Positions 2,085-59,500 of a stretch of DNA of 64,000 bases are shown here, in pieces (the first letter of the stretch is position 1; every line of letters starts with the position of its first letter). The position numbers and the translations under genes are program-made. The notes under the pieces are model-generated. The model was given only the letters and a program-made list of their open reading frames with translations, ran no database searches and was not told the origin of the DNA. The DNA is taken from the NCBI GenBank assembly GCA_000091205.1, contig AP006499.2; one strand, given 5' to 3'. The stretch is from Cyanidioschyzon merolae (taxonomy: Eukaryota).

Positions 2085-3954
2085 GTTTGGAGTACGAACC
2101 CGTCGTTGCTGGCCACTGATGCAGCCGATGAGCGCAAGTCGCCGAGACTATCCACGGTGTCCAGTAATGTGCGTGTTTATACATTTTTTTCTTGATCGCC
2201 TTTCGAGGCAGCGCATACGACGCGCTCGCCCCGTTCATGCCAGCGGTGACGCACGCTACGCTGGAAGCGATCGCTGCGATGACTACATTCCAAGTCCGAG
2301 ACCCTTTTCCACGCATACCGAAGAGACAGTAAACTTTAGCAGCGTATTGTGTGAGATGTGTCATGCAGCTGCCGAATGCCATTCCGTGAATGGCCTCAAA
2401 TGGCGGAGGATTTGTTATTCGAACGGAATCGATTGTTTCACGCGAGATGTTCGGTGAGCTTTCAGCACGGTTTTTGTGGATCGAGTTGCGAACGGCCGTT
2501 GCCAAGTATTATCGTCCGTGAATCCAGCGCAATGAATCGCTTCGTCAAAGCGTTGATTGAACCTGAAAGACCGAAACCCTGCAAGAATACCGTGTACGCA
2601 TATACTATAAATAGCGATAGAGGAAGAACGGAGGCTCGTACGTATGCATCAGATAAAGGTATCCGTTAGTTTACAAAAACCTATTTGATTGCGCCGCAGA
2701 TCTGCTTTACTCCGGTGATGGCACGAGTGCCAGCGGCGAACTGGTCAAAGCAGTTGCCCCGAACAGGCGGCCGAGAACTCTCCAACTGCGTATGAATCGA
2801 CAAGTCCCTAATGCTCCATTTCAGAACCTCGAGGCTGTATGCCTGGGAAACCTTCGAAAGAATCTCAGAGCTGGAACAGATGGCAACGTTTCTTGTTTAA
2901 TTGTTATCGGACACGACAAAGGCGGTCACCAGAAGCGTACAACTCGGAGTTGGTTCATCCCCGGTGCAGTGTATAGCAGGAGATCGACATCACGATGCAA
3001 CGCTTTGTATAGATCGTGGATGAATTACGTGCTGGACATTAATTCCTTACTGAACATTGTAAGAGAGACCGCATTCCTCCCTCAGGTCAGTCATACAACA
3101 GTGCTCAGATGGTTGCGGAATAACGGAATAAACATGTATGTGCAGTCCACGCAAAGAACTGATGTTCCTTAAGTGTGCTTGCAGTCAATGGTAGAAAACG
3201 ACCAATAGATCACGCTCTAAAAAGCAAAAGTGACGCTGATAGCCGCCGCGGGCGTCTCTGCTTCTCAATAGCTTGAGCGTGTTGACCAAAAAACATGGGG
3301 ATGCAGTCGCCAAGGAGAGTGCTAGTTCATGCACTGCCGTCTTGTACCGAAATAGCAACGACAGAGTTCCTAGAACGTCGGGATCCGTACGAAGCACTGG
3401 AACCTCGAGTTGCTTTTTTAAGGTGATAAGACTTCCTCTTGACGAAACGGTCAGAGCGTGTACGGGTATTCGCGGAGCAGGGAGCACGATGTATGCACTA
3501 CCGAACTTTAAGAGAACGAGGACACTATCTGTTCTAGCTGGAGTGGATTCTTTTCGCGGCCTCAGTTCCGCTAGTAGACAAGGTTCATACAATAGCTCCA
3601 AACACTGTATCGAATCATTGAAGACTTTACCCTGACGTCTGGCGACGTCCGCCCATTGGACAAAGTGGCATTTTCCAATTTCCCTAGCGGTCGGGCTTTC
3701 GCCGATTTTATCGGGGCAGAGCTGATTTTCATTCCTACGTGCATTCCGTGGTTCAGCCACATCGAAGGAGTGTTTTTACCCTGAAACGTCATGATAGTTT
3801 CAAGTGCGAATCCCTGAAGCGTTCAGCACATGGTGACACACCGGGTACATTTTATCTGTCTTGCGCAAATCCTTCTCCCTCTGAGAAAGTCCTCACCAAG
3901 GGGCATCAAGAATTGCGTTCATCTAAAGAAATAAACCATCCAACGGATGAGCTG

Positions 3955-4345
3955 AAGTGTGCACTTCAGAAGGTCGAGATGCAACGAAGGCAGCGGAGCG
4001 CTCCGGCGATCGAAAAGCACAGAGCGCCGCTAGAGCGCTAAATGCCACAGAGGGCGCGATTTCAAGGACTTCTGCTACTGATGCGTTCCATCGTCGTCAA
4101 TAAACGCGTGGAGTTCGTGAACCGAGACTCCAACGCTGCCATCCATATCAGAAGATATGCAGTGCTGAGGACGAGACCCAAGGAACTGACGAGAGCCAAC
4201 TTTATGGGGCAACCTCTCAGTGTCAAAGTGTACAAGGGCAAGCTGAACCCCCACAGCAGGGGGCCGGTCAAAAACGCCTGGGAAGCGTCTGCACGTGGGT
4301 ATTCATTTACTCTGTATGGCCGCGAAACGTTTCCGCTTCCTTGAC
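3955..4345 (+). mobile_element. TnpB/Fanzor-like transposon relic, locus A (3'-terminal fragment)
   Basis: Translation 'VEFVNRDSNAAIHIRRYAVLRTRPKELTRANFMGQPL' is a degenerate RuvC-III motif. Nucleotide homology to loci B and C runs from ~3955 ('gtgtgcacttcagaaggtcgag') through the shared non-coding tail 'ggccggtcaaaaacgcctgggaagcgtctgcacgtggg'. It sits in an AT-richer gene-free stretch (2100-4500). Confidence 0.45.
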
Positions 4346-4527
4346 TGTGGAAGCGAAATCCGTGGTGACTTTCACAGCATTTTGGCGCGCTTTCGAGCAG
4401 CGCGCGCCAGATCCGCCGATGATCGCTGTGTTGCGCCTGGCGAGCAGCTCCGCGTGGCAAGACAGCGAGTTGTGTCGCGCGGCTGCTGCGCTTATCCAAG
4501 CCTGGGTTTCTTTGAACATAGTGCTCA

Positions 4528-8575: not shown

Positions 8576-9394
8576 GCGTTTCTCTGGGTGCTGCAGACAC
8601 ACGCGGTGTCGAGAAATCGATGACGCGACCCGCATATCCTTCCCTCGGTTATGGAGTAGATTTGCGATGTGTGTAGCGCTAATGCAGATTTGTAAATTCG
8701 CTCTTAATGCAGATACTTGACAAAAGGGTGGCGCGCTCGCGCTAGAACGCAAGAGCGAAACAAACTCGCACAAGCGCACCTCTGATCTGAGACAACGAGG
8801 CAGTATTACGGGAAGACACTCATGAACAGCGAATCCGCATTCCGAAACGCTTGGCAAACGGATCGCTCTCGCCTAGCACGTGTCATGCACCGTACCTGAA
8901 AGCGATGTTCCTGCTGACTTTTCGTGAGGTGCTCTAGCCGGCCCCGAGCATAGCACTGTTCTCGTGCAGAAAGCAGTGTATGGTGTCTAGCGCGCCCGCT
9001 TCCAGTACCGATCGTGAGCATATGGACTATTCCTGGCATGAGACTCCGAGCCCCAGGCCGCAGTTCCCAGATCAGCGGTCGATATGCAAAACGCTCCGTG
9101 ATTGCTGCCACAATCACTCTGCAGATCACATCTTCGATCATAAGGGAAACGCGCATGAGAGCGCGTCGTTCCCACGGTCCTGAAGCAGCATGCTCCGCCC
9201 GCACATCATAAGGTATCTGTGCTGTGGAGCCGCCAGCACCCCGATGCTGGGGCAGCAGCGCGAACTCGCGGCTTTTGTGGAGTCCGCGCACCCCGAAACA
9301 CGCCTGCAGGGCCATGGGCACGGCAAAAGCAGCCACCGTGTCTGGCAGAAAGCCACAGCACCACTTTCATGGCTTGTCGTGGAGAATTTCGTTT

Positions 9395-9880
9395 CCGGTT
9401 TACAGCAACTCGGAATGAGCGTACAAGGCGTGTGCACCTCGTTTCGCTACGATACTTATAGATGAGTTCCGAACATCGTATACACACCACGAACTGGGGT
9501 GTACACTTCAGAAGGTCGAGCTAGGAAAGTGCCAGCGGAGCCCTGAGGATATAAAAAGCACGGACCGCTGACAGAAGCGCAACTGGAAAGGAGAGCGAAA
9601 GTTCGTGGACTACTTGCATTAGTGAGTACAACCAGTGACGGCAAGAAACGTATGGAGTTTGTGAATCGTGACTTTAACGCCGCTATCAATATCAGGAGGT
9701 GTGCGGTGCTGGAGACGAGACCTCCAGAGTTGACACGAGAGAACTTTATTGGACAACCTCTCAAGTCGAATTATATGAGACAAGATTGGAAGAAGTAGTA
9801 GGTGGCCAGTCGAGAAAAACTGGGAGGCGTCTGCACGTCAGTGGGAGACGTTTCGTATAGGGCGCTGGTCGCCACTACTG
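9395..9880 (+). mobile_element. TnpB/Fanzor-like transposon relic, locus B (3'-terminal ~480 bp)
   Basis: 'MEFVNRDFNAAINIRRCAVLETRPPELTRENFIGQPL' is the RuvC-III D-x-NAAINI-R signature. It is ~80% nt identical to the minus strand of 46418..46900 (locus C), including a near-identical ~60-nt block ('cgatacttatagatgagttccgaacatcgtatacacaccacgaactggggtgtacacttcaga') and the post-stop tail 'taggtggccagtcgagaaaaactgggaggcgtctgcacgtcagtgggagacgtttcgtatagggcgc..gccactac'. Confidence 0.55.
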
Positions 9881-9904
9881 CACACGCCCGTAGTCTTTCT
9901 CACA

Positions 9905-10795
9905 ATGCTACGGTGGTGGTGGTGGTGCAGAAGATTCAAAGCAAACTTGCCAGTTTCTACGCTGCGTGGTGAGCAGCTTTTCGGCTCCGCGCAGCACCGA
10001 AACCTAACCCAGTCGAGTTATGTCGGCGAGAGCGTCTACTTGTGGCAGAACAAGGCTCGCGTTCACGGGCTTGTGTCGCCACGCGAAATAGCTTGCAGTC
10101 CGCGCTTGAGAAGCATATTAAGCGGGGCACTGAGCCGACGTGGTTACTCGACTCCTGCTTCGGAGAGTGTCGACGTTCAGCGGCGTCTAGATGAGCAGCT
10201 CCGCGCCAAGGCTGCTATTGCGCTGGACCCGCAGGGCCTTGCGACAGTTTTGGCCGACTCGACCCGAATCGAAGAAGCTAACGCCACAGTGCAGCCCGAT
10301 TCTACCGCGAACGAAACGCAGGCACAGCAGCGACGACGTCGACGACGTCTGTATCCCGACGGTTCCGTGAACGCTACTGGACGACGGAAGACTGCCGTTG
10401 CAGTCGCGCGTCTCTTCCCGATAGAGTCGCCCGGAGGTCCGCAGTCGACCGCAGTCGATCATGAGACGCTCGTGGAACCCCGCTTTCGCGTCAATCGTCA
10501 GGATATCGCCGATTACTTCCTTCGTGTTGATCATCGTTTGGAGATCATGCGCCCGCTGATGCTCACCGGTATGGAGAACCGTTTCCATGTTCATGCGTTT
10601 GCACGCGGCGGGGGCATCACCGGCCAAGCCGAGGCTCTTCGACTTGCCATTGCGCGAGCTTTGGAGGATTACGACCCTGAGCTACGGCGTATACTCAAGC
10701 CGGCAGGTCTTCTCACGCGAGACCCTCGCATGGTTGAGCGGAAAAAGTACGGTAGGCACAAGGCCAGAAGAGCCTTTCAATGGGTCAAACGATAA
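9905..10795 (+). CDS. MRPS9: Mitochondrial ribosomal protein uS9m (S9/S16 family) with long N-terminal extension
   Basis: ATG at 9905. C-terminal 'GGGITGQAEALRLAIARAL...KPAGLLTRDPRMVERKKYGRHKARRAFQWVKR' is the conserved uS9 C-terminus. The long N-terminal extension is consistent with an organellar presequence. Confidence 0.8.
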   Translation: MLRWWWWCRRFKANLPVSTLRGEQLFGSAQHRNLTQSSYVGESVYLWQNKARVHGLVSPREIACSPRLRSILSGALSRRGYSTPASESVDVQRRLDEQLRAKAAIALDPQGLATVLADSTRIEEANATVQPDSTANETQAQQRRRRRRLYPDGSVNATGRRKTAVAVARLFPIESPGGPQSTAVDHETLVEPRFRVNRQDIADYFLRVDHRLEIMRPLMLTGMENRFHVHAFARGGGITGQAEALRLAIARALEDYDPELRRILKPAGLLTRDPRMVERKKYGRHKARRAFQWVKR

Positions 10796-34900: not shown

Positions 34901-37569
34901 ACTGCGAAAGCGATGTGGCCTCTGGTTGCTCGCCCTGCATGGAAACGCACCTTCGATTTTCTCGCCATGTGACGTTCGATCAGCTCACCACACACCGTAT
35001 CGCGCATCCGACTACGCTCTATAGTCTTCTTCTGTACTGGTTTCAGCGCACGCCCGTACTCGTGGTTCGAGTACGTCGTACTGAATTCATGGATGGGAAT
35101 CGTGCAGCACCGAAACCTGCACGCGTTGGACGCGCTCGTCGAAATGGGCAGCGGCGCAGTATTTGCGAGTTTCAGCCTGTCCCGTGCCAAGGGCTGCTGC
35201 AAAATGACGCAAATTTTTGAGCTACTCCTTTTCCAGCTCGTTGAATAGCAAGGCGAATGTCCGCCTCGTGCCTCCCTACATCCGAAACATTACGAGGCTC
35301 TGGCGCGGTCGGATATACTCTTGCCAAAAGTCGTCGAAACGAACAATTTGGACGCTCATTTACTCACTGAATGCAGCGTACCATACCAATCGTTGCTTCT
35401 CGATACAGTGACGAGAGCGTCGAGATCGGTCCTGCCGTCGTCATGCCACTTGTTGATATGCTTCCTCACGACCACTGGGCCCGAACTTAGATAATATCGA
35501 GGCTCAGAAAAAAAGTCAGGCCGTGGTGCATCTTCAGTACCGCCCGTCGGTTGTTCCACAAAGGTTTGACCGAGGAATTCTGGGGGCATGTGAGCGCCTG
35601 GTAGCACCTCGCCCCGAACTCCGACAATCATCTCACTGACGTTGTACGTCAAGGCAAGTGGGGCCGAACAAGACCTTCCCGAAAAAGAAGCTGCAGAGTC
35701 CTTCATGGCTTCCCGCATCTCACAGTTTTGTAAGATTCTTCCCGTAGATGCGTTTTCGTACGGAGCTCTTGCCAATGATTTCACGCAGATCCTTTCACAC
35801 AGGCCGTTTTGCGTTCACGTACTTTCTCGTCCTCTTTCTGAGCGGATCTTTCTCTTCTTTCTTCTGTGGTTTCTTCACTGTCTCGTTTGCATGATGGAAG
35901 GGCACGGGTGCCGTCGCTTAGCTCTATGTCCGTTTCTCCCTTGGGTCCTAGACGCACTGGATGGATGTTGCGACGGATCTTGGCTTTCTCTATCTTTGTA
36001 TCCACTATACTTCGAGCATCTTTTCGCCAACAACCCCGATGCAAGCACGTCTGCGAACCGAAATGCGCCTTTCCATTCTCTTCTGCTATCGAGCACATAC
36101 GCAACGCCGTTGCTCACGGCTAGTGAGGCTAATGAACGGCTTTCCAGAGAAAAATTCGTCTACGAACGGTGTCACGGATGCGAATGAATCGTCTATGGAT
36201 GCGAAAGCTTACAAACGGCGTTTGACAGCATAGAAGCTGCTTCCGATTTGATACAACCAAGGAGAATAGGCTGCCACAAAGTGCAGATTAACGCCATCAC
36301 CGGCTGTGCGCTCTCTGGCCAGTTTTCGGGATGCAAAGCGACGTAGTCTACGAGCCGGACAGAAGACCACCGGAAGAAGAACCCGCAATGCGCTCCGATG
36401 AAGGAAGAGGCGTCAAACGATCCCGTCTGTTTGGGGATGATTCGGTGAGCAAACGACAGCATCGCCGCTCGGGCTGATGTCGCTTTCATTCCCGCTTGTC
36501 TTTTCTTTACGAAGAGCGGTGTGCCGCTACTCTAGGACCCCAACACAGGTCTACCATTTCTCCGGAATGAAGTCAGGTCGACTAAAACGAACATCCGTGC
36601 CACGTGTCGTCAGCGTTCGTGTTCCAGTACGAATTCGCTGGAGTGCGCTTCGTCAGCGTGCGATGCGCTCCCGAAGAAGCGCGCGTCGTTCTTCGCCTAT
36701 CTGCATCGCTTCACCACTGTTCGTTATCAAGGGTATGGAAACGTTGCATGCATGCTGTGGGTTTTTGGTAGTATTTCATAGAGAACGGATGCAGTGGCAT
36801 TGCCTGGCGAGGAAACTGTTGTATATATTGATTCTGATGAGTTCGAGTTCGATTGCTTGACGCTGAGCATATCGCCTAAGCGAACGTTCCTTCATCAACT
36901 TGCTGAAAGTTCAGTAGCTGATTCGTAAGAGGATGACCTGTTTCCGCAATCAAGCAGCAACAGCATAAAATCTTTCCACATTCTCACTCCATTCCGAAGG
37001 ATACAGTTATTTTGTTGCATACCTGCGAAGAAATAAACCAGGACAAAAAGTATATTCTGGTTGAGGTATTCTGGTACCACCGATTATGAGCGTAACGGTA
37101 GCGGCAGCGCGTCCGTGGGCATCGCCGCTGTCGCTCTTCGAACCGACGCCCTTTGTGGTTCGGCACTGCCGTTCTGTCTCCGTGCAGCGACCGCACCGGC
37201 GCTACAGGCGCTATTGCTGCCGGTTTCGGCAGGCTCGGCACACGATAGGGCGTATGAAACGACCAGAATATCCGAGATGAAGTATAGGTCATGTAACCTG
37301 AGAGTAGGAGGTTGATGGCTACCTCACCGCACACTGAAAGAAAAACACACACAAAGAAAATAAGAAACGAAAAATGCGCATAATCGGAGAACGCTGGCCT
37401 ATGGAAACGTTTTGTCCATGAAAAGAAAATGTGCCGCTGTCGCTGCGATCGGGTTGAAGGGCAGCGCGCCGGCGGCGGCGGCGGCAGCGCCAGCGACCCT
37501 AGACACTAGTCATAACCTCGCCGCTGCTGACATCATTCTATTGCCGCTGCGGCCTTTCAGAGCTTTTTG

Positions 37570-39234: not shown

Positions 39235-40829
39235 CCAAGCAGGCGCAAGGATACTATCTAAATGCTCTGGGCACCGTTTGCCACTCACTGGTTAGAATGA
39301 CGGTGCCGTATCCGTGCTACAGGTGCAGAAGATATCGGTAGAGGGAGAGCGAACGTTCTCTGAAACCAAGTTCGTCTCAGAGCGTTGAGCTCTGGTACAT
39401 CTGTATCAGCATGCTGCTTTTCCTTTTGTTTGTGTTTCTTGCAGGCATTCAATAAAAGGCATGCATCTTGTAGATCTGAGAAAGGTCGCGGAAAGATCAC
39501 GCTGTCATTGTCAGCAGCAGAAAATGGTCGCTCTCATACGAGGCAGTTATTCTGTGATCAGATGGTGGATGAACCACGCTTCTCGAAGAGCTGAACGTCG
39601 TGCACGCCAAAAAGAACTTGTGAAACTCTCTTCACACGATTTTCTCTTCCTTAATTCATTCCAATCCATCTGTACACTGAGAAACACGACCAAACAAGCC
39701 GCAGGCTGTGAGGATGATGCATCGTTGGTACCACCGGTGATGAAAAGGCACGGATGGAAAACGTGAACAGCACACCTCTTTGGAAGACACTGGCCCTATC
39801 AAAGCTACACGATCGATTTCTTTATGTGATGTGGATCCGTATTCACCAACGGGCGGATATCCGTCCTACTCTATGCAACCTTATTCAGGAGCATTACCAG
39901 ATTTGCGTAGGAGTCCTCCAGGAGGGCCAAATCGAGCTTCGTCGAGAAGCGACACGCGCGCGTTCCGACGACATCACCCGTGGCGGCAATGCTCTGATGC
40001 GGTTCCTTCCAAGTCGCCAGACTGACAAGATCGCTCGACACCGCATCCTCCGTTGAGGCGCTCGTCTCGGATTTGACGTTTCGCATGCTTCGGGCCTGAT
40101 CCCAGACGACATCTCTTTCCGTCACTAAAAAGCGGTCAACGAGCACGCAAAAGAGAAAAGCGTTGCGCTGCTCTTCCTCCGAATCCAGTCACTTTCGATG
40201 AACCCAGCCAAAGGCATGCCAGTCCTGTCTCCGAATCACCTCTGTTCTGGCCCTACAGACGCTATTCCGGATGATCAAGGCAGACTCGGCGACTGGTGGA
40301 ACATACGACATAGCCGTCATTACCGAAAACAAGTACGTGTGGAAGCTGGTGGTACCCTGGGGCACGCTGCAAAAATGATAGACGCGCTCCCCGATGTCGA
40401 TCACGTACCACGCTCTCCGGAACTCGCTTTTCACGCCACCGTTCTACGAATGTTGAGCGTGCATCAGATCATCGCTCCTCGCGTATCACACTGACCGGGA
40501 TTCCTGTTTCATGGCAAAGTTCCGTGGATTGCAAACAGCCACGGGATCAGCGGATCCGCCTCCGCGTTGCCGCTGCCGTTCCTGGACGAAAACGATGGTG
40601 CTGGTGCGCCGCCCAGCCACCCGGCTCTGTCTTGCCGATACGCAACACTTTCCAGCAGCGCTGTACATGTGTTGCCGCTGTTGTGCGCTTTCACCGATGA
40701 CTGTAGAGCACGCGGCGTCCGACTTGCTCGCATATAGCCTACGGTTTTGGAACTAGCGTATAACGCGTTTGTGCTCGTCTTGGCCACTCCATTGACCCGT
40801 TTACGACCCAGCGTCCAGGGTTGCCAGAT

Positions 40830-42387: not shown

Positions 42388-45300
42388 TCAGCGGGCAGTT
42401 ACAACCAGTGGACCGGGATACGCAAACGGCAGCTCGCTGGCTTCCCTGCGCCCGGTAGTCTCATTCAGCGAGTGATGCTGGATTTGACTCAGGCCCTGCC
42501 GGTTCCGAGTCACATAGATGTACGAGTCAGCGTACTCCCGAATATGAAGATAATCGAGGAAGCGCTCTTCATGGGTTATGAGTATAAGCTGAAAATTGCG
42601 TTGCTGTGCACGTTGTTGGATCAAGAGAGATAGCGATGCAGCGAGCGCTTTCACGTGGCTCTCGTCCAGGTTGGTCGTCGGCTCATCGAGCGCGAGGACC
42701 CCGCAGGCGTTCCCAAAGTTTTCCGCCAGCGCAAGGCGGATCAAGAGACATGCGAGCACTTTTTGTCCAGCCGAGCAGCGACCACGCATATCAAGCCAGG
42801 TATCACCCTGGCGCATCACTACCCTGTAGTGATAGGTCCGACGACCCATTGGAAGCGAGTCCGCCACAAAGTCGGATCGTATCTCGATTTCCTCGATATC
42901 GGAGCCGAGGTAGGTGCTCTGCCAGAGCTCCCGCAGCACTCGATTGATGCTGCGCATCTTGAGATCGTGATAGCGCATGATGGCCAAGTCCAGCGCCCGA
43001 TGGTAATTGCGCAAATCCCTGCAGACCAGCTCGATCACGTCACACTGCAAACGAAGCGCTTGGAACTGTTGCTCCGCTTGTGCAAAAACGTCCGCATCGA
43101 GTTCCACGGTGAGTGCCCGCAACTGCTCTGCGAGTAAATCACGCTGACCACGCAAATGATGAACTTTTTCCCGGAGCGTATCGGCTTCCGCTTTTGCCGC
43201 CTCTAACGCGGACACGTGCGGATCGTGTTCATCGGTCATTGGCAGGGTGCTTGCTAGCTCCACGTCTTTCTGTTGCAATTCGACGAGCATTTCCTGCAAC
43301 TGGCGGTACCGAAGGTTGTCGCGCACTTGACGCAGATACGAATCGGCGTTCTGGCGTTGCCCGGCCCACTGAGCTACAACCTGCACTGCCTGCGCTTCTT
43401 CGGCGAGCGTCTGTATGATTTGCTCGCGGCAGGTCTCGAGCTGCTTGTGGGCAAGTTTGTGTGCGTCACCTTCGAATCGTCTCGACTCTTGGATGTAGAC
43501 TTGAAGTCGGTTTTCAAGACGGATAAGATCTGTATGGATTGCTCGGTGTCGCGAACGAACGGCTTCCAGACGCGCCAACAACGCTGCACTCGCCGGTGGC
43601 GCTGCCTGCAACAGAGCTTCCTCTACTTTTTGATCCAACGCGCAAAGGGAAGCCTGCTTTTCTGATCGCTGTTTGCGTTTTTCCGCCAGACATGCTTCCA
43701 GCTGGTCACGGTCATGCTGCTTGGCGCGCTCCGCAGTGAGTTCCTTCTCAGTGGTCTGGATTAGATCATGGAGCTCTTGAGCGCGTACAAGGAGCTCTTG
43801 GCGACGCCCAAGCAGCGTGTCGAGTTCCCCCCGCAACGAAGTCTCTTCTCTTGCCAAAGCGTCCCCCGCGGACGTCGGTTGATGCGGTGCTTCGCGGGTG
43901 TCGACTTCCAATGCTGCAACTACCGGCGACGAAGCTGCGATTCCGGATGCCGAGCTGGGCCCCGATGGTGCCATCTCCTGACGCAAATGAGCCAAACGTC
44001 GCGCATACCAGAGGAGCTCTCGGGCATCGGCCAGTTCATGTTCAGCGACTTGCTGATCCGTTCGTTCGCTCCGTCTCGCATCTTCTAAGCGCTGGATCTC
44101 GGATTCGGCGCTGCGAATGCGAGAGATGCTTCGCTGCTCCTGTAAAGTGATCGCAGCACGCTCCTCCAGCAAACGCCACTGATGCTCCGCCCTGTTCAAA
44201 GCATCCTGAACGTATTCCAAGGAGTCGGAGTCTGCCGCCTGGGTCAACGTATTTCGTACTCGAGCTAGGGCGGACTCGACATTGGCCGCCTCGGCCATAC
44301 CGCTGAAAGCGCGGTCGCATAGCGGACAGGTTTTCTGTTCGTGCACGCGCTTGCGCATTTCTTCGAGCCAATTCGCTTGTCCGTCACGTTCTAGGGCTGT
44401 GCTCTCCAGCTCGAGATGTCGACGTTTCAGCGCTGAAATTTGAGATTTGAGGCACTCTGCATCCACTGTGCCTGGTTGCACACTTGCGTCGATTTCTCGC
44501 AGGCGGCTGCGCATCGAGAGCAGCCGTTCGCTTTCTTTGTCGCAAATAGCGCGCCGCAAGCGCATCTCCAGTTCCGTGCCCATGATGCGATTGCGTACGG
44601 CTGATAGATTGCGTTCGGCGGAGGCGAGACGATCTTGCGCTTCGGAAACGGAGCAGGATGGTAGCCGCCTCTGCTCCAGTAATCGTTGAATGGATGCTTC
44701 CTCTTCCTCGCGAAACTTTTGGAATGCCGCGGCTATCGCGCTTGCATTCGTGTCACCACGAGTAGCCGTGTGCGTCACGTCATTTCGACGAGAGGCCAGG
44801 TTTTTCGTGCGTACTTCGAAAATTTGTTCAAGACGTTTCCGAATAGTAGACATTCGGTCCATGTCGGTCTGGTTCGAAAGCTCTTCGTCCACCTGCTGCT
44901 TTTCTGCCTGAAACTGGACTAAAAGCGCCGATTTCATCGCCACAATCTCGACATTCATCGGGAGCGACTGCAAGCGTGCAGCGGTTTCCGCGCATGCTTC
45001 CTCCAGAGTGGCGATTTCGTTCCGAATCTGCTGCGCCTGACGCTGATCGGATTCCAGTTCGAGCTTCAATTTTTGTTCACGCTGGAGTGCATCCTCCCAG
45101 AGGCGCTTGAAGTGCTCCATTTCCCGTTCGCAGTCATTGCGAGAACGCTCCAGGATATGGATTAGATCCTTGGCACTCCGCTCAATGGCTCCTTCTCCTA
45201 TGTCCGTGCCATCAATCGAATGGCTTTTCCGGATTTCCCGCAGCAATTCAGCACATGATGCACGCTGCCGCTCTATGGCTGCCTGTTGGCAGCTGTAAGC

Positions 45301-46356
45301 AGCGCATTCCTCTTGGAGACGCTGCTCGCGATCCCGCAGAAGCTGTAACTGCTTTTGCAACTGCAAGCTCTCCTCGGATGCTTTTCTGTACTCAGCATCA
45401 ACTTGACTGTACTCAGCAGTGATGCGAGTAAGCAGTCGCTCCAGATCTTGGGTTGTTTCCGTGAGTTCTTTGCCGAGTTCGCGCCATAAACGATCACGTT
45501 CCTCAGTCCGGATTCGGATTTCGTCACGCAGCGCCTGCAACTGCCGGCGCCGTTCGACCTCCTTTGCACGCGCTTCCTCAAGCTCTGTGACCGCTCGTAT
45601 TTTCTCACTCAGTTCCGTTTCGAGGGTCCCCAGCGAATTCGACCATTCGAGGCATTGGGCTTGCATGCTTCGACAGTTTCGTTGCTTTTGCTTCAGGTTT
45701 TCGAGGCGATCCCGCCAACGCTCTAGTTCCGAATGCAGAATCTTGAGTTCGGCGAGCTTCTGCTGCGCACACTTCTGAATCGCGATGAGGGCTTTTGCGT
45801 AACCGCGTGCCTCGAAAATATCGTCGAATTTTTCCTTGACTTTCTTCGGATCTTGCAACGGCCATAGGGACTCTTCTTGATGAACGAAAATCACGTTCTC
45901 TAGAACCGCCTGGCGCACACCAAGAAACGCTGGAGCCATCGCATTAATGTCATTGCATCGGTTTGAGGTTTTGATGTGCTGTCCGTCCTTGTCCCGAATG
46001 CTGAGGCTTGTCTCCACGGTGCTGAAACTCTGTTTCCCAGCAGTTGTGAGCCGAAGCTGGAGCTGGCGGTTCACGGTAATCTGTCGACCAAGCGCGTCTT
46101 CAAATAGCAGGCGAATTTTGGCCTTCGTTTCCTTGCTTTCACGCAAACGTGGATCGTGCACAAAAGCGGCGCCTTTGTCGACGAGCGGCGGCAACTCGCC
46201 AGTCGTTGCCAAGCGCAGGCACTCCACTATGGTAGTCTTTCCGGTGCCGTTCGCCCCCAGTATGACGGTTATCGGCGCCTGGAAGCGTAGGCGTTGCTCT
46301 TCATCCGGACCGAAACTCCGTACGCCTGAGAAGCCTAGTTTGATCAGACGTGACAT
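42388..46356 (-). CDS. RAD50: DNA double-strand break repair protein Rad50
   Basis: N-terminal 'MSRLIKLGFSGVRSFG...ITVILGANGTGKTTIVECL' (Walker A). The zinc hook 'CPLCDRAF' sits in the middle of long coiled coils. C-terminal signature 'SGGQKVLACLLIRLALAENF...LALDEPTTNLD'. ATG at 46356 (the listing begins at a GTG two codons upstream). Confidence 0.9.
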   Translation of the reverse strand: MSRLIKLGFSGVRSFGPDEEQRLRFQAPITVILGANGTGKTTIVECLRLATTGELPPLVDKGAAFVHDPRLRESKETKAKIRLLFEDALGRQITVNRQLQLRLTTAGKQSFSTVETSLSIRDKDGQHIKTSNRCNDINAMAPAFLGVRQAVLENVIFVHQEESLWPLQDPKKVKEKFDDIFEARGYAKALIAIQKCAQQKLAELKILHSELERWRDRLENLKQKQRNCRSMQAQCLEWSNSLGTLETELSEKIRAVTELEEARAKEVERRRQLQALRDEIRIRTEERDRLWRELGKELTETTQDLERLLTRITAEYSQVDAEYRKASEESLQLQKQLQLLRDREQRLQEECAAYSCQQAAIERQRASCAELLREIRKSHSIDGTDIGEGAIERSAKDLIHILERSRNDCEREMEHFKRLWEDALQREQKLKLELESDQRQAQQIRNEIATLEEACAETAARLQSLPMNVEIVAMKSALLVQFQAEKQQVDEELSNQTDMDRMSTIRKRLEQIFEVRTKNLASRRNDVTHTATRGDTNASAIAAAFQKFREEEEASIQRLLEQRRLPSCSVSEAQDRLASAERNLSAVRNRIMGTELEMRLRRAICDKESERLLSMRSRLREIDASVQPGTVDAECLKSQISALKRRHLELESTALERDGQANWLEEMRKRVHEQKTCPLCDRAFSGMAEAANVESALARVRNTLTQAADSDSLEYVQDALNRAEHQWRLLEERAAITLQEQRSISRIRSAESEIQRLEDARRSERTDQQVAEHELADARELLWYARRLAHLRQEMAPSGPSSASGIAASSPVVAALEVDTREAPHQPTSAGDALAREETSLRGELDTLLGRRQELLVRAQELHDLIQTTEKELTAERAKQHDRDQLEACLAEKRKQRSEKQASLCALDQKVEEALLQAAPPASAALLARLEAVRSRHRAIHTDLIRLENRLQVYIQESRRFEGDAHKLAHKQLETCREQIIQTLAEEAQAVQVVAQWAGQRQNADSYLRQVRDNLRYRQLQEMLVELQQKDVELASTLPMTDEHDPHVSALEAAKAEADTLREKVHHLRGQRDLLAEQLRALTVELDADVFAQAEQQFQALRLQCDVIELVCRDLRNYHRALDLAIMRYHDLKMRSINRVLRELWQSTYLGSDIEEIEIRSDFVADSLPMGRRTYHYRVVMRQGDTWLDMRGRCSAGQKVLACLLIRLALAENFGNACGVLALDEPTTNLDESHVKALAASLSLLIQQRAQQRNFQLILITHEERFLDYLHIREYADSYIYVTRNRQGLSQIQHHSLNETTGRREASELPFAYPGPLVVTAR

Positions 46357-46417
46357 AAACACACGAACAGGCGACCTTTCTCGCGCCTAAACGACAAACG
46401 TTGCTGCGGTCGACAGC

Positions 46418-48710
46418 ATCGTAGTGGCGGCGAACGCGCCCTATCCAAGACGTCTCCAACTGATGTGCAGACGCGTCCCAGTCTTTTCGGACCGGCCACC
46501 TACTAATGCATTCGACTTCTTCTCGTATATATCCATCTTGACAGATTGTCCCACAAAATGCTCTCGTGTCAATTCGGGAGGTCTCGTCTCCAGCACCGCA
46601 CATCTTATGTTGATTGCGGCATTAAAACGTCGGTTCACGAACTCCATATGTTTCTTGCCGTTGCTTTTAGAACTCACTCATGCACGTGGCCCTTCAACTT
46701 TCATCCTCCTTTCCATTTGCTCTTCCGTCAGCGCTCCGTACTTTTCTATATCTTCAGGGCTCAGCTGACACTTTTCCATCTCGACTCTCTGAAGTGTGCA
46801 CCCCGTTCATGGTGTGTATACGATGTTCGAAACTCATCTATCGGTATCGTAACGATACGCCTGGCGCATTCCTTGTACGTTTTTGTCGACGGAGCTGGCG
46901 TAGTCCCTTTTTTGGACGCCCTGCTGCATATGCTTCTACTAGCCTTTGACTCTCGTCCTCCGTGAAAGCGCTCAACTGATTGAAAAAGTTGGCGAATGCA
47001 CGCTGCTTCCTACAGTACATGTTCATACGCTGCCGAGCCGGCCGGGGCGTGGTACACTCTCCTCACAGCACATCCCAATGAGCAACGCGAACTTGTATGA
47101 ATTTCAGAAAAGCCTCAAAGTTCGCGCCGCGGCTCGTCACCTCGCTCAAAGCTTCCAGGTGCTCTTTCACTCCTGCATGCCATGTCTCACTTTTCTTCCT
47201 CGCATTCATGATTCCCGATTCTCGATAGAATCCCGCTCTCGAGAATCTCAAAAGACGCACGTCTTTCTGGCGCAAGTTACCGTCGATGCTCTCTTCCATA
47301 CGCTTCGGTGCTGCGATGGTTCTGATTATCGTGTGTTCCCATGGTCCGAGCCAGTGACAAAATCGTTACCCTGAACTTTCTGCGTCACTGGATCCGCCTT
47401 TTTGTTTTCTTCATGCTTCGTCATGGGCGATATCGAAGACGTAACTGGACGTTTCGCCTTCAAGCGCCGATAGTGTACGCACATGGCTACTCCATCGGTT
47501 TCGATTATCCCAGTGAATACCTTTTGCTTGCTTACTTTGAGTCGTTTGAAATCGAAGGTATTCTTCCAGTAGGTCTCCCGGTTTTCACCGGGGAACTCCG
47601 TGTTGCTTTCATCGAACTCCGGACGGATCTCCTTCGTGATGCTGTAGAGGACTCTGGAGTCGATGGTCACAAAATTTGACTCGATGTTGCACAACGGAAC
47701 GCAATTGAAGCGCTTCCCCATTAGGAAAGCCTTACGTCTCTCCCACTCTTCATTGTTTTTCCTTACTCAGCTTCATCTCCGCGTTGCGTTCTAGTTCTCG
47801 GTTCAAAAACATGAAATATCGCAAGACGAGGCGATTGTATCTTTCCTTATCTTTTTTTCAACTCTGATATCTTTTCCGCTGGACTCGCCAGCCCCAGTAC
47901 CGCACGGTGCTCTTGTATAACCGCACGGATTACGGAAGCTTCATTTGTGCCCTCGTTTGACGCCTTCTTGTCGACGAATTCGACCTCATCTTCATGCTTG
48001 GGATCCTTCGTGATGCCATTGATAATCGCCCACATTCCTTTGCGAGAGATGCCAGGGTACAGCGCAAACACGGCGCGTATCATGAAATGTTCGAGGTTCA
48101 CTGTGAAATGGTTCTTCAGGTTCGTGATGTACTTCATCGCTCCGTAGGTGTAAATATCCGCTTCACCCTTGTATCGAGTACCGTTGAAGCGGTATTCGGC
48201 GTAATTTTCGTGAACGCCATGCACTCGCTCATTTCTCCTCGACGGTTCCCCTGTACCAAGCATCAGGTGACGAATAAAGGTCTTGTCGAAAAACTCGTAC
48301 GGAACCTCGTCTGTTTCCATGTGCGTCACGTCGCGATACATCTCCTTTACGAAATGCAGCAGTCCTGACGATGCCTTTACAATACTCATGGGGTACGAGT
48401 CGACACGGTTTCTGATGGCGTCTCGCAACTTTTGCCTGCAGAGATCCTTGATATGCCCAAAAAGACAGGCTTTCACCACCATCTCGTCGTTGTGTCGTCT
48501 TTCGTGCGGGTTCTGACTTCGGGCTTCCCTGTTTTGCTTCTTCGTCTTGTCTTGTTCCTCTTTGCTCCGCCATGTTTTTCGTTGTCTCCGGCAGCCAGTG
48601 ACATTTAGCCTCCAGGTCCTCAACTTGCTTTTCCATAACTTTCTTGTATTTATTTTGGAAAGGAACGCACGTAGAACGCTTCTGCTACAAACGGCGAAAA
48701 TCACTTGAAT
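46418..48710 (-). pseudogene. Decayed Fanzor/TnpB-like (IS200/IS605-family RuvC nuclease) gene, locus C, the longest copy
   Basis: The minus-strand ORF fragments 47847..48704, 47326..47721, 47063..47299, 46838..47026 and 46441..46677 lie in frames 2,0,1,1,0 and are separated by stops or frameshifts. The final fragment reads '...KKHMEFVNRRFNAAINIRCAVLETRPPELTREHFVGQ' (RuvC-III). '[11 protein letters not shown]' is RuvC-I-like. 'IPIDEFRTSYTHHERG' is a Cys-to-His-decayed zinc-finger remnant. 'CTLQRVEMEKCQLSPEDI' is separated from the RuvC-III frame by a single TGA. The region is AT-richer than its flanks. Confidence 0.5.
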
Positions 48711-48921
48711 GAGCTTACTTGAGGGTTGGAAAACAATTCAGCTGAAAAACTATACTTTGCTATTACTTGAACGCAAATACAACTTTTACGGTAGAACAAC
48801 ACGCAAATATTCAGGATCGCGTTTCCCTTCAACGGCGAGATACTCCTCCTGTCTCATGCCTGCCAGATATCCCAGGTGTGCGTATCGACCACGCTATATA
48901 GAACAAATAACAGAGACTAAC

Positions 48922-49572
48922 GATGAACTAGCAACGATATAAATATTTATTCCCCCTAGATGAAACGTTAAAAACGGTAAAGGCTTCCCGTACTGTCGAA
49001 AGTTTACCTTACAGGCGGAGGGTCCCGCGAGCCGGGCGACTCTGCTGGGCTGGTGCCCGGTGTGCCTCTAAAGTGGCAGGTGCTGTGGCGAGACCTGAGC
49101 AACTCGTCCGAAACGCAGTTCAAGCTGGAATAAGGGGCATTTGGCCTGCGTTTCAGCGTCGCCCCGGTCGCAGTGGACTCCCAGCATATCGCTTCGCGCT
49201 GCCGCAGACAGTATGTCTGTCCGCGTAGCTTGCAGGCTCCCCGAATAATTATGTATTCCGACCTCGTGTCGAGTGCACCACGCCTCGAGTCAACGCCCGC
49301 AGCGGAACAGCAAAGCCGTACAGTCTCCGGGATATATCTGCTCTGGCGGTTTTGGCGCCACCGCGGGGGCCGCAAGGCAGGCACTCAGCACACGATAGCG
49401 TGTACAAAACGACCCGTATACTCGGGAGGAAGTAAAAGCAATGGAACTTGAGGGCAGGTGCTTCATGATGGACGCCTTTTCGATTACCACTATCCATCCC
49501 GCAATCTGGGATCCATGGTCGATGGAGACGAATTTTGTCATCGGAAAAAATCGATCGCCATCCCATCGGCCT
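48922..49572. repeat. 650-bp dispersed direct repeat, copy 1 (98.5% identical to copy 2)
   Basis: Aligns base-for-base with 50844..51505 (about 9 differences). It lies ~110 bp upstream of the Rab ATG (49782). Confidence 0.9.
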
Positions 49573-50384: not shown

Positions 50385-50843
50385 TCATCGCCGAGCTGAG
50401 CATCGCGCTGTGCACACTAGACATGATTCGGAAGCGATGGACCTGGATTTCGAGCCGAGTGGGGAGGCTCTGCAGCTGAATAGCACCAAGCTTGTAAAAT
50501 TCTCCTAACAACATACATATTTGCAGACATTAGGTAGTGCACAATTTGATGACCCGCACAACAGCGAGTTTGCGGTATGTCTCGAAAATCCAGTGGGCAT
50601 GTGCAGAGATACACATATGAGGTACAAGGCAAATTCCACAAGAATCCGACGATGCGTCTCAAGTGTACGGATTGTTTGTCCACGTCATCGGTGCATAAAG
50701 AAGCCGCTACACGGCACCGTGACGCAAAGACAGGTATCACACCGACGCTTTCAGAAAAGTACACACTTTGCGTAGCGCATTGCTGCGCGTCTTTCCAAGG
50801 TCCAGCGAAACCGAATCGAGCCTAGATCGAGGTGCACAGCAGG

Positions 50844-51505
50844 AGACTAACGATTAACTAGCAACGATACAAATATTTATTCCCCCTAGATTAAACGTTA
50901 AAAACGGTAAAGGCTTCCCGTACTGTCGAAAGTTTACCTTATAGGCGGAGGGTCCCGCGAGCCGGGCGACTCTGCTGGGCTGGTGCCCGGTGTGCCTCTA
51001 AAGTGGCAGGTGCTGTGGCGAGACCTGAGCAACTCGTCCGAAACGCAATTCAAGCTGGAATAAGGGGCATTTGGCCTGCGTCTCAGCGTCGCCCCGGTCG
51101 CAGTGGACTCCCAGCATATCGCTTCGCGCTGCCGCAGACAGTATGTCTGTCCGCGTAGCTTGCAGGCTCCCCGAATGATTATGTATTCCGACCTCGTGTC
51201 GAGTGCACCACGCCTCGAGTCAACGCCCGCAGCGGAACAGCAAAGCCGTACAGTCTCCGGGATATATCTGCTCTGGCGGTTTTGGCGCCACCGCGGGGGC
51301 CGCAAGGCAGGCACTCAGCACACGATAGCGTGTACAAAACGACCAGTATACTCGGGAGGAAGTAAAAGCAATGGAACTTGAGGGCAGGTGCTTCATGATG
51401 GACGCCTTTTCGATTACCACTATCCATCCCGCAATCTGGGATCCATGGTCGATGGAGACGAATTTTGTCATCGGAAAAATCGATCGCCATCCCATCGACG
51501 CGCTT
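50844..51505. repeat. 650-bp dispersed direct repeat, copy 2
   Basis: See copy 1. It lies ~118 bp upstream of the p23 ATG (51623). Confidence 0.9.
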
Positions 51506-56581: not shown

Positions 56582-59500
56582 ACTGCGGAGCCACAGTGCA
56601 CCAAGGAAAGTGTGGTTTTTGCAGGGGCTTTGCCAACGGGAGGCGAATTTTTCTACTGCCGGTCAAGGGTGCAGAAGAAGCACTCGGGAGATCCTGAAAG
56701 CATTCATCGAGGCTATAGCATAAAGAAAGTTGGACGAAGGAGGTGAAGTGTCTTTGTGCCCTCTGCAGCGTGACTTGTCGATGAGCAGCGGTCGACGCGT
56801 ACCGGCACGCTCGCTAGAGCGCTCTTGCAGAGCGACGTGAAAAACTTGCATTCATGAAGAAAACACCACGGGAACGTAGCGCTTAGGAATATATGCCTAA
56901 ATGCAGTTTTTGGTGCTCGTTCGTCCAGCTGTGACGGAACGCCGATGGAGTCGTAGAAAACGGGATTCGCCTGTCATAGACGTGTACCCAAGCTAGACTG
57001 AACTGGCAATGGGTCGTCTAACGCGCCTGTCAATACTGCAGTTTGGGTCTTTTTTCTACTGCCTTCAACACAATCCTCTGTGCGCTTTTTCTGTGGCTGA
57101 TCCGTGTTCCTCTATCCTATCTTGGGCTCTAAATACGCGGGTCTTTAGCTTTCCCCCAGCCCCAGTGGAAGCAGTCGTACGACGTTGAGGGAGCGTTCAA
57201 GCGCCGATTTCGGAGCTCCCAGCTCTTGTCCATGCATTTGATGCACAGGGCGAAGTTGCGGCCTATGATTCGCTTGCCATTTTCTACTTCACTGCATACA
57301 CCCTGACTGTGCACACCGCAGCAGTGACACTACTTTGGGCAGGTGTTCGCAAACTTGCACCAAATCCCTCGCCTCAAGCCCAACTCTGTGGTGCGTAAAC
57401 GCTCGCTTCACCTCTTTCTACATGCCCCTGACGAGTACGGAAGGCGCAACGCATTGCCTTCCTCCGTTTCCGCTCTCGGTGCCGGACCCTATTATCACGG
57501 GCTTCTTCTGGGCGATACCCGCGGCGAGTTCAGTGTCCACTGCATGTGCAAGCGCATGCTGTTCCATCCTACACGAGGATTTGTGGAACGGGATGTCGAT
57601 CTTGATGAATCGAGAACCGGTGACGAATTCCAGGCGGGGAAGCAGTCGAGAAATTTGGATCCGTCAATACGCATTTTTTTGCCAAGCGGTGACGCAATCT
57701 CTGCACCGGAAGCGATCGCTGCGATGACGTGAGTCCGAGTCCAGACCCTTTTCTGGACAAGCGGAAGGAACCGGAGCCTCCAACAGCATAGCTCTCGAGA
57801 AGTATCATGCTACTGTGGTATGTCGTTCGTCGCTAAACACAAAGATAGGAGGATTTGTTTTTTGTACGGATCCGATTACGAATTGAAGATAAATTTTATT
57901 TTCAGGACAATGTTACGAACAAGTCTTCAAAAGACGACGACGACGACGCCTTTTCTCTTCGTACATCGGGTGGTGCGAATTGCTGTGCCCACGAATCCCT
58001 ACGAAACATCAAGATCGAAGAAATGACGCAGACGTGATTTGATCATTCTACTCGTAAAGAACGGAGAGGAATGGATGCTTGGACGTGTGCATTGGATAAT
58101 GGTATCCGGCGTTTACGAATGCCTGGTCGAGGCCCGTACAAATCATCCTGAGTCCTGTGCCGAAACGAATTCCATCGGCTGGGCGTCGAAGAAGCCACTC
58201 CGAAAACACGACCGACATTCGTGTAACGACAGCCGGCTCCGTACGCCGTTATTCCCGCACATCGAATACTGGGGCTGCAAATCCAAAAAACAACTTTGGA
58301 AAACCTGGATAGACGGGAACAGTGTGAGCGGTTCAGTGCCCCAGTTCAATTATCACGCGGACGAGGACTGCTTCGTACCACCAATAGAAAACGCAGTATT
58401 GGGATGGAGCACTAGTATCCAGGTGTGCACCTATCATGATAGAAGCGTTTCCAGTCGGCACCATCGAGGATCCCTCACTTGCCTCACCTACCGATTATCC
58501 TGGAAAAAACGGCCTGCAAATGATGAATGTATCACGAGCACTGCATTCCAGGGTGGCATTTGTCTTGCAAACAAAACGAAATGTGCGCTTTATTTCCCCC
58601 ACATGTAACCCAGAAACACCTAAATGCCTCGACTGGATCGGTCGCGCTGGTGGCAGTGCACAAAGCGTCCAAGTGTGTCGTGCGGTCGCGAGTGCCACTG
58701 CGGAGTGACGGCCTCTGCATGTGCTGGAGTCACGATATGCATACAACCATGCCATGAAGTATGTGCCGATGTCAACGCACACTCTGTAAGGTCGAAATGC
58801 TCTTCGCACGAAGAAACAGGCGACAGCCTCTCCGGTGTCATATCCGGTAGAACGTGGCTGTCACGATGGATACCAGCGGCCGACTTTGATACACTCTTGC
58901 TGGGACTCTGGTGCGCGTGCTCACGGAACTCATGCGAGGGCAGCGGAATTTACAGCTGCATGTAAAGGATTGCGGGTTCTGATGCCGGGGGCTGTTGTCC
59001 CGATTCACTCTGTCAAACGCTTACCACGGAATGAACTGGTTCGATGTATGGTGCATTGAGTCTGCGCCATCCCTTGCATGTCCACGGGCATGGTTTGTCG
59101 TGAACGTATATCGCGTGAGCCCATAACCGTGGCGGGTATCGAGTCTCGCTCGTGTCTGAGTACAGCTGAAAAAATTCTTATCAGAAGGTTTGGAGAATGC
59201 CTGATAGGGAAATAAGACTCGCGTCTGCACATCAGGCGAATAAGCTGATTCGGTCTTCCTGTTGATACCGCAGTCAGCTAGCTGTCAAGGCACACAAAAA
59301 GATTCACGATATGCTCGTCTAGCGAAACGGTTTCACACGCATACCAGGCGAACTAGCTGGCTCGTTCTAGCTATCGAAGCTGCAGCGAACGAATCAGCGA
59401 TTCCCCGTAAGAAGGCTCATGGTATGCCAAGGTCGGTAAGAGGCCATACATTCGCCAACCAGGAGAGCCAGCTTGTTCGTTATTCCCGGCGACGCTGCAG

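Follow-up and report, generated by a model that had tools for sequence, protein, structure and literature searches.

Relic B, one of three related gene remnants (A, B, and C; Table 1) in the 64,000-nucleotide (nt) stretch of Cyanidioschyzon merolae contig AP006499.2 analyzed here (hereafter the window), is, by its alignment to reconstructed relatives, a dead, 5′-truncated, twice-frameshifted copy of a high-copy Fanzor1-type element. Fanzors are eukaryotic relatives of the RNA-guided nuclease TnpB. The original prediction for this locus gave B a non-coding tail and terminal hairpin, held in common with A and C and conserved above the coding part, and proposed them as a candidate guide-RNA scaffold. 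Comparison with homologous reading frames indicates that the apparent non-coding conservation is a frameshift artefact. The explanation that we favor has three components, namely a dead Fanzor1 copy, a frameshifted coding tail, and an ancestral guide-RNA scaffold in the 3′ module, and we consider the three together the probable account of this locus.

Relic B and its element family

Six-frame translation identified A, B, and C as pseudogenised C-terminal parts of a TnpB/Fanzor-like nuclease. Within the window, a blastn search with positions 9301 to 10000 returned two matches, C and A. B (9420 to 9878) aligns to C (46879 to 46421, minus strand) at 79.05% identity over 463 nt (E = 1e-108), close to the roughly 80% over about 480 base pairs (bp) that had been noted, and to A (3949 to 4296) at 69.3% over 355 nt. 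A protein search with the repaired translation of B found 192 short, unannotated metagenomic open reading frames (ORFs), and a scan of related metagenome contigs raised the family to more than 435 copies, 80 to 86% identical to B, from which 79 loci were retrieved from a handful of related JGI samples. Nearly all copies are broken: of 96 sites anchored on the tail (a few by chance), 74 have an in-frame ORF shorter than 200 amino acids, and the longest reaches 629 amino acids. One anchor match inside the window, at 59030 to 59344, proved to be a chance match and not a family copy.

In a majority consensus built from the copies, an intact ORF of 833 amino acids is recovered; it contains GADPGNTNI, DEFRTS, and NRDFNAAINI and ends in RRFV-TAG. 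The conserved core of the element is about 2.84 kilobases (kb) long, and window positions 9417 to 9899 correspond to consensus positions 2360 to 2844 (88.7% by blastn; 88.9%, with two 1-nt deletions, by global alignment). Inside the core, a coding unit of about 78 nt (about 26 amino acids; roughly VVDAAKDEEKKEADPATQEVEDND; L047:3100-3480, consensus codons ~400 to 520) is tandemly repeated, and the number of units varies among copies.

All three catalytic RuvC motifs (D, E, D) are present in the consensus ORF, and their residues are invariant or nearly so in an alignment of the family with distant homologues; B keeps only motifs II and III. A profile built from the family and these homologues matches the Parasitella parasitica Fanzor1 PpFz1 (9cf0, E = 2.4e-17) and the Guillardia theta Fanzor1 GtFz1 (9cer, E = 3.2e-5), with no non-Fanzor match among solved structures below E = 0.8. 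A single-sequence PDB search returned SpuFz1 alone, weakly (E = 3.1). PF07282 scored 13 bits in the translation of B (E = 0.12; cut-off, 26.3 bits) and reached the threshold, at 26.9 bits, in the distant relative P0205; Pfam assigned no family to the long ORF of locus L047, for which PF26935/DUF8286 appears only in precomputed annotations. A zinc-ribbon/TNB domain (CxxC...CxxC) between RuvC-II and RuvC-III is typical of Fanzor1, without strictly defining it; the consensus lacks these cysteines between DEFRTS and NRDFNAAINI, distant relatives P0204 to P0207 retain them, and the family carries a basic C-terminal extension of about 20 amino acids. On this profile and motif evidence, relics A, B, and C are derivatives of one high-copy Fanzor1-type (TnpB/Fanzor) nuclease element. 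Their host genome is, to judge from its gene content, compact, intron-poor, and eukaryotic: Pfam searches found uninterrupted ORFs in the window for a Ser/Thr kinase, an ABC half-transporter, a RAD50-like protein, Nop56/58, SRP72, citrate synthase, and ribosomal protein S9.

The tail of relic B

The RuvC-II and RuvC-III motifs sit in different frames of B, so that the earlier reader met stop codons and took parts of the relic to be non-coding. In a 60-nt block described as almost invariant, B and C agree at 56 of 62 positions (90%), and in another frame the block is coding: its translation, ILIDEFRTSYTHHELGCTLQKV, includes IDEFRTS, the RuvC-II glutamate motif, of which DEFRTS is nearly invariant in homologues. 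Homology does continue past the apparent stop of B to 'gccactac' (9871 to 9878), as had been noticed, and against the family consensus it extends further, to about 9899 to 9927; comparison of 61 copy termini places the right-end boundary at about 9927. The stop itself is false, arising from the second 1-nt deletion only. What had been read as a non-coding tail consists for 59 nt of the last ancestral codons, shifted by the deletion after 9762, and leaves a genuine 3′ untranslated region (UTR) of about 67 nt in B. Homologous metagenomic ORFs run straight through this tail as ...NFVGQPLKVELYEKKLEAVVGGRSKKTGRRLHVSWRRFV* and share the family stop in 12 of 22 aligned cases.

Conservation of non-coding sequence above its surroundings, an expectation of the original prediction, was not found either between B and C or across about 80 copies. 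B and C are 81.0% identical (64/79) in the claimed tail (9802 to 9880) and 79.9% identical (302/378) in the claimed coding part, and the majority fraction is flat along the whole element (0.85 to 0.91, with tail windows at 0.91 and 0.85). By codon position, conservation is.91/.93/.85 for the tail and.92/.94/.82 for the ORF before it, third positions varying most; by this measure the tail is a stretch that evolved as coding sequence, without extra constraint at synonymous sites. Neither conservation along the element, nor identity between B and C, nor the state of the broken copies gives evidence of selection acting in place on A, B, or C. Because conservation is flat, identity is 81% and 80% in the two parts, and nearly all copies are broken, the similarity of A, B, and C is, on these comparisons, one of common descent from a single transposon family followed by near-neutral decay.

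Table 1. Coordinates of relic B, related relics, and adjoining features in the window.
Feature	Position	Strand	Basis or remark
Relic B, 5′-truncated Fanzor1-type pseudogene copy	9417..9927	+	Last ~147 codons + 3′ UTR + right end
RuvC-II catalytic motif, coding for ILIDEFRTSYTHHELGCTLQKV	9451..9513	+	Translation; B-C identity 56/62
First 1-nt deletion (frameshift)	9553..9554	+	Alignment to consensus; consensus codon 732
RuvC-III motif, VNRDFNAAINI codons	9651..9683	+	Translation; motif conserved in homologue alignments
Second 1-nt deletion (frameshift)	9762..9763	+	Alignment to consensus; consensus codon 802; remaining ORF out of frame
Predicted long-range helix, 5′ arm (GTAGTAGGTGG, AVVGG codons)	9795..9805	+	Pairs with CCACTAC 9872-9878 (UTR); minimum free energy (MFE) and centroid folds of consensus, B, and C
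False stops TAG TAG	9796..9801	+	From second deletion only; homologous ORFs read through
Ancestral C-terminal codons (...VVGGQSRKTGRRLHVSGRRFV)	9802..9860	+	Up to family stop TAG 9858-9860; larger part of claimed non-coding tail
Claimed hairpin, CGTCT / 13-nt loop / AGACG	9828..9850	+	Inside ancestral codons RRLHVSGRR; no compensatory changes
True non-coding 3′ UTR + right end	9861..9927	+	Family homology stops ~70-85 nt past stop codon
Degenerate terminal stem-loop (CCGTAG 9888-9893 / CTACGG 9908-9913)	9888..9913	+	ΔG -10.2, z -1.1
Host ORF, ribosomal protein S9 domain	9905..10795	+	PF00380, E = 2.7e-39; first in-frame ATG (9905) inside relic B end
Relic A, older copy cut at both ends	3947..4296	+	Consensus 2432-2783
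DDE_3 (Tc1/mariner-IS630 type) transposase relic directly upstream of A	3032..3775	+	tblastn with DDE_3 proteins of L083/L085/L086, E = 2e-11
Relic C, nearly full-length pseudogenised copy	46366..48881	-	blastn, tblastn vs consensus

A candidate guide-RNA module and its rivals

With the arguments from a non-coding tail, elevated conservation, and a shared terminal hairpin removed, the Fanzor1 origin of B, its retained right end, and the published location of Fanzor guide RNAs still stand. The guide-RNA idea is plausible for the 3′ end of the family because published Fanzor1 guide RNAs map to the same position: that of GtFz1 overlaps the last 17 codons of its ORF (PMC10432273), the RNAs that co-purify with other Fanzors come from the 3′ non-coding region, and conservation extends into the ORF (PMC10530073), and every Fanzor tested so far co-purifies with a 3′-end or right-end RNA (PMC10530073, PMC10432273). 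The candidate module of B spans ~9815 to ~9927, taking in the final codons and then the UTR as far as family homology reaches, which is the location expected of an omegaRNA, from the 3′ end of the nuclease ORF to the right end. In an active ancestor, the last ~13 to 25 codons and the ~70- to 85-nt UTR would have been transcribed as an omegaRNA/fRNA scaffold, possibly beginning near consensus GGAGGCGTCTGCAC or the AVVGG codons, and a terminal stem-loop would have abutted a guide read from flanking DNA. In B such a module would be a fossil; since B is a dead fragment and the window holds no intact nuclease, no present-day guide-RNA function is implied for B.

The hairpin on which the original prediction relied is real as an inverted repeat (CGTCT, 9828 to 9832; AGACG, 9846 to 9850), and it lies within codons. 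Covariation analysis of the tail copies, the check that had been proposed, did not support it: across 68 copies changes in the two arms are one-sided and disruptive (one pair, for example, is C-G in 48 copies and C-U in 16 to 18), covariation does not exceed shuffled controls, and the 38 nt around it have a mean fold z-score of only -0.84 over 70 copies. Nor is the whole hairpin common to A, which has the 5′ arm only; its homology ends at 4296, inside the loop, leaving A without 3′ arm, stop codon, or right end.

The consensus tail is predicted to fold into a long-range helix, a small CCGGUC/GACUGG hairpin, the claimed hairpin, and a terminal stem-loop. Pairs of the long-range helix are retained in 82 to 96% of copies, no more than base conservation predicts. 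An analogous arrangement was observed in the relative P0188 (~47% identity), where a 19-nt inverted repeat (L089:3252-3270 / 3365-3383; 79% complementary) joins RuvC-III codons to the bases that directly follow the stop.

Structurally, the final ~38 nt inside the right end, rather than the claimed hairpin, are the best feature; their mean z over 70 copies is -1.66, versus +0.33 for a coding control. Subfamily type 1 has a predicted terminal stem of 17 bp with five G.U pairs (ΔG -23.8, z -6.5), subfamily type 2 one of 13 bp with a different 5′ arm in a shifted register (z -2.2), and B a degenerate form (Table 1). In these folding models, the register-shifted stem in two subfamilies is the only point that suggests a conserved structure. 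The sense strand of the terminal region folds ~4 to 10 kcal/mol better than the antisense strand in 60 to 68 of 70 copies.

Several results weigh against the guide-RNA part of our explanation. RNAalifold on 68 copies gave essentially no consensus structure (energy about -1.2 kcal/mol or zero), and covariation above shuffled controls is absent across the copies (for the consensus MFE and centroid structures, 2642 standard-pair cells versus 2620 ± 9 shuffled and 38 compensatory cells versus 31.5 ± 4.9), both tests having low power with dead copies that diverge neutrally. Folds of the whole tail exceed shuffles only modestly (consensus tail, -49.4 kcal/mol, z = -1.8; B, z = -2.7; C, z = -1.0), and the strand asymmetry of the terminal region may merely reflect a G+U-rich sense strand in 70 copies that are not independent. 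Rfam 15 returned 0 matches at gathering threshold over the whole window, in a database that may hold no Fanzor RNA model; at E values up to 10, B had none and the well-preserved copy L036 only sub-threshold miRNA-hairpin matches on its terminal stem. Intact relatives P0183, P0188, and P0197 (~40 to 50% identity) lack the ~20-amino-acid C-terminal extension, their ORFs ending ~20 amino acids earlier as ...GQPLVHRVGKTLRR*, so that the tail is not comparable across lineages. In favor of the guide-RNA part, a ~100-nt module without an ORF, from GGAAGCGTCTGCAC to the right end, occurs in four loci (L017:743-840, L018:1126-1220, L039:812-909, L065:796-893), always ~715 nt upstream of the left edge of another full copy. 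We considered these as independent 'ghost' guide-RNA loci and rejected them as strong evidence, the four being paralogous over at least 900 nt as parts of one larger unit; they may go back to one extreme 5′ truncation and its later duplication.

Much of this would also follow if the tail never had an RNA function and were simply C-terminal coding sequence, an ordinary 3′ UTR, and a transposon end, with A, B, and C alike through ancestry and the predicted stems arising as by-products of composition or as a DNA-level terminal sequence recognised by a transposase. Flat conservation without covariation, the coding signature of the tail, and the modest overall fold z-scores all agree with this account, as does the fact that relatives adjoin a DDE_3 transposase, an enzyme that would require binding sites at the termini. 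We nevertheless regard it as unlikely. The published co-purification of RNA with every Fanzor tested speaks against it, the terminal stem, which relies on five G.U pairs, loses much of its strength on the opposite strand, and comparison of the class-II left end with the right end found no significant terminal inverted repeat (best score equalled in 44 of 1,000 shuffles).

A different reason for the survival of right ends is suggested by what lies beyond them. Across the junctions in L001 to L081, a same-strand ORF of at least 150 amino acids starts no more than 600 nt past the right end in 37 of 53 distinct flanks, versus 9 with an opposite-strand ORF (binomial p = 4e-5), and 24 of those 37 start within ~42 nt of the boundary. 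In the window, the S9 ORF begins inside the end of B, C precedes a RAD50-like ORF identified by Pfam (42388 to 46362; ATG at 46356), and A precedes a Ser/Thr kinase ORF (ATG at 4528). The bias suggests either that copies insert near gene starts, with survivorship in a compact genome shaping what remains, or that the element donates a promoter or 5′ UTR. On the latter view, the right-end module would have been exapted by the host, persisting as promoter or 5′ UTR of the downstream gene under host-level selection; the strand bias, the genes that follow A, B, and C, and the loss of the 5′ part of B with retention of its right end would all fit. We find this rather unlikely: preferential insertion at gene starts with survivorship yields the same pattern, the tail is no more conserved than the rest of the element, and A has lost its 3′ end as well as its 5′ part and so persists without any right end. 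That the ~100-nt right-end module had a double role, as guide-RNA scaffold and as outward promoter or 5′ UTR before host start codons, seems to us quite improbable. If true, dozens of host genes (ribosomal S9, RAD50-like, transporters) would be expressed from Fanzor ends, and tail retention in truncated relics such as B would be explained.

IS200/IS605 transposons combine a TnpA (Y1) transposase with subterminal DNA hairpins at both ends. A right end of that kind, its subterminal hairpin read as single-stranded DNA by a TnpA (Y1/HUH) transposase, is very improbable here despite a strong subterminal stem-loop just inside the right end and a nuclease related to TnpB, since no TnpA-like gene was seen, the stem-loop is found at the right end only, the transposase beside intact relatives and relic A is of the DDE_3 type, the host is eukaryotic, and published Fanzor1 elements are carried by eukaryotic DNA transposons (PMC10530073).

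A (GGT)5 microsatellite lies at window 9912 to 9927, exactly on the right-end boundary of B, and appears to derive from the terminal motif GGCG(G/T)TG(N)TGGTG of subfamily type 1. At L041:655-750, the last ~45 nt of one copy of the element are tandemly duplicated (CGCCACTACTGTACAC...GGCGTT).

Element architecture and comparison with known systems

Intact relatives of the family (39 to 52% identity) lie directly downstream of a same-strand DDE_3 (PF13358, Tc1/mariner-IS630 type) transposase gene. No DDE_3 gene adjoins the B/C family itself, and at least two different conserved 5′ segments occur as alternatives ahead of its 2.84-kb core; from this arrangement the family is probably a nuclease-only, non-autonomous unit. 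Tc1/mariner-IS630 (DDE_3) transposons carry their DDE_3 gene within terminal inverted repeats and make a TA target duplication. Inverted-repeat scans of the relatives gave one plausible pair only (L082, 853 to 882 / 4464 to 4493; 30 nt, 73% complementary). Head-to-tail tandem copies are frequent, with a spacing of 3.2 to 3.9 kb (L018, tails at ~1220, 4430, and 8309; also L053, L056, L058, L075, L076, L078, and L079).

Relic C retains the family stop at 46443 to 46441, and a subfamily 5′ segment lengthens it to 49568. This segment is one of two 656-nt direct repeats (48913 to 49568 and 50843 to 51497, in minus-strand orientation) that are 98.6% identical and surround 1.27 kb of unique sequence; the same 656-nt segment occurs in ~25 metagenome loci, sometimes joined to the Fanzor core and sometimes separate. 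The window also holds a second, divergent Fanzor-like relic (34945 to 35511 and 36149 to 36723, both minus strand; ~30% amino acid identity to the consensus) directly downstream of a DDE_3 transposase relic, the gene order of the pair being that of the intact relatives, and a further weak DDE_3 transposase relic at 39461 to 40242 (plus strand; 22 to 26% amino acid identity, E ~ 1e-4).

Relic B itself matters little, being a decayed copy of a known element type. The copies of its family, however decayed, permit reconstruction of an intact 833-amino-acid consensus Fanzor1 with a defined ~100-nt 3′ module, from a lineage that has lost the zinc-ribbon cysteines. If the right-end bias reflects targeting or promoter donation, it bears on how Fanzors coexist with compact eukaryotic genomes. 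For the family, an ancestral guide-RNA scaffold at the 3′ end is by homology a reasonable idea, the evidence first offered for it fails, and B itself would be a fossil of it.

Among known systems, the bacterial TnpB/omegaRNA pairs of IS200/IS605 elements (e.g., ISDra2) show the arrangement proposed for this family: the guide-RNA gene and the 3′ end of the ORF overlap, the gene extends as far as the right end, and the guide is read from flanking DNA. The family differs from them in its eukaryotic host and in that no TnpA was seen, no PDB match to TnpB or Cas12 was obtained at E < 1, and no Rfam match was found.

In Spizellomyces punctatus, 'ghost' loci hold right-end/omegaRNA copies without a Fanzor ORF (PMC10432273), and the four ORF-less modules described above, which hold only the last ~100 nt of the element, resemble these; unlike the ghost loci, the four are paralogues of one repeated unit. 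The association of 'Fanzor1c' with Tc1/mariner transposons (PMC10530073) recurs here in the intact relatives, relic A, and the relic at 34.9 to 36.7 kb, all of which follow a DDE_3 gene, whereas the B/C family lacks an adjacent DDE_3 gene and no terminal inverted repeats were demonstrated for it.

The closest comparison is with Fanzor1 itself (SpuFz1, GtFz1, PpFz1; Saito et al. 2023, PMC10432273; Jiang et al. 2023, PMC10530073). The copies analyzed closely here differ from these proteins in being decayed, in the loss of the zinc-ribbon cysteines, and in having the ~20-amino-acid basic C-terminal extension and the ~26-amino-acid tandem repeat; unlike Fanzor1 systems with an observed guide RNA, their module is known from its sequence, with a fold that shows no covariation. 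They share with Fanzor1 a TnpB-like RuvC D...E...D arrangement with profile similarity to PpFz1 and GtFz1, a eukaryotic host, a multicopy transposon context, a lysine/arginine-rich N terminus, and a candidate RNA module with the same placement, where the ORF finishes and directly next to the right end, and of a size similar to that of published scaffolds (SpuFz1, 75 nt).

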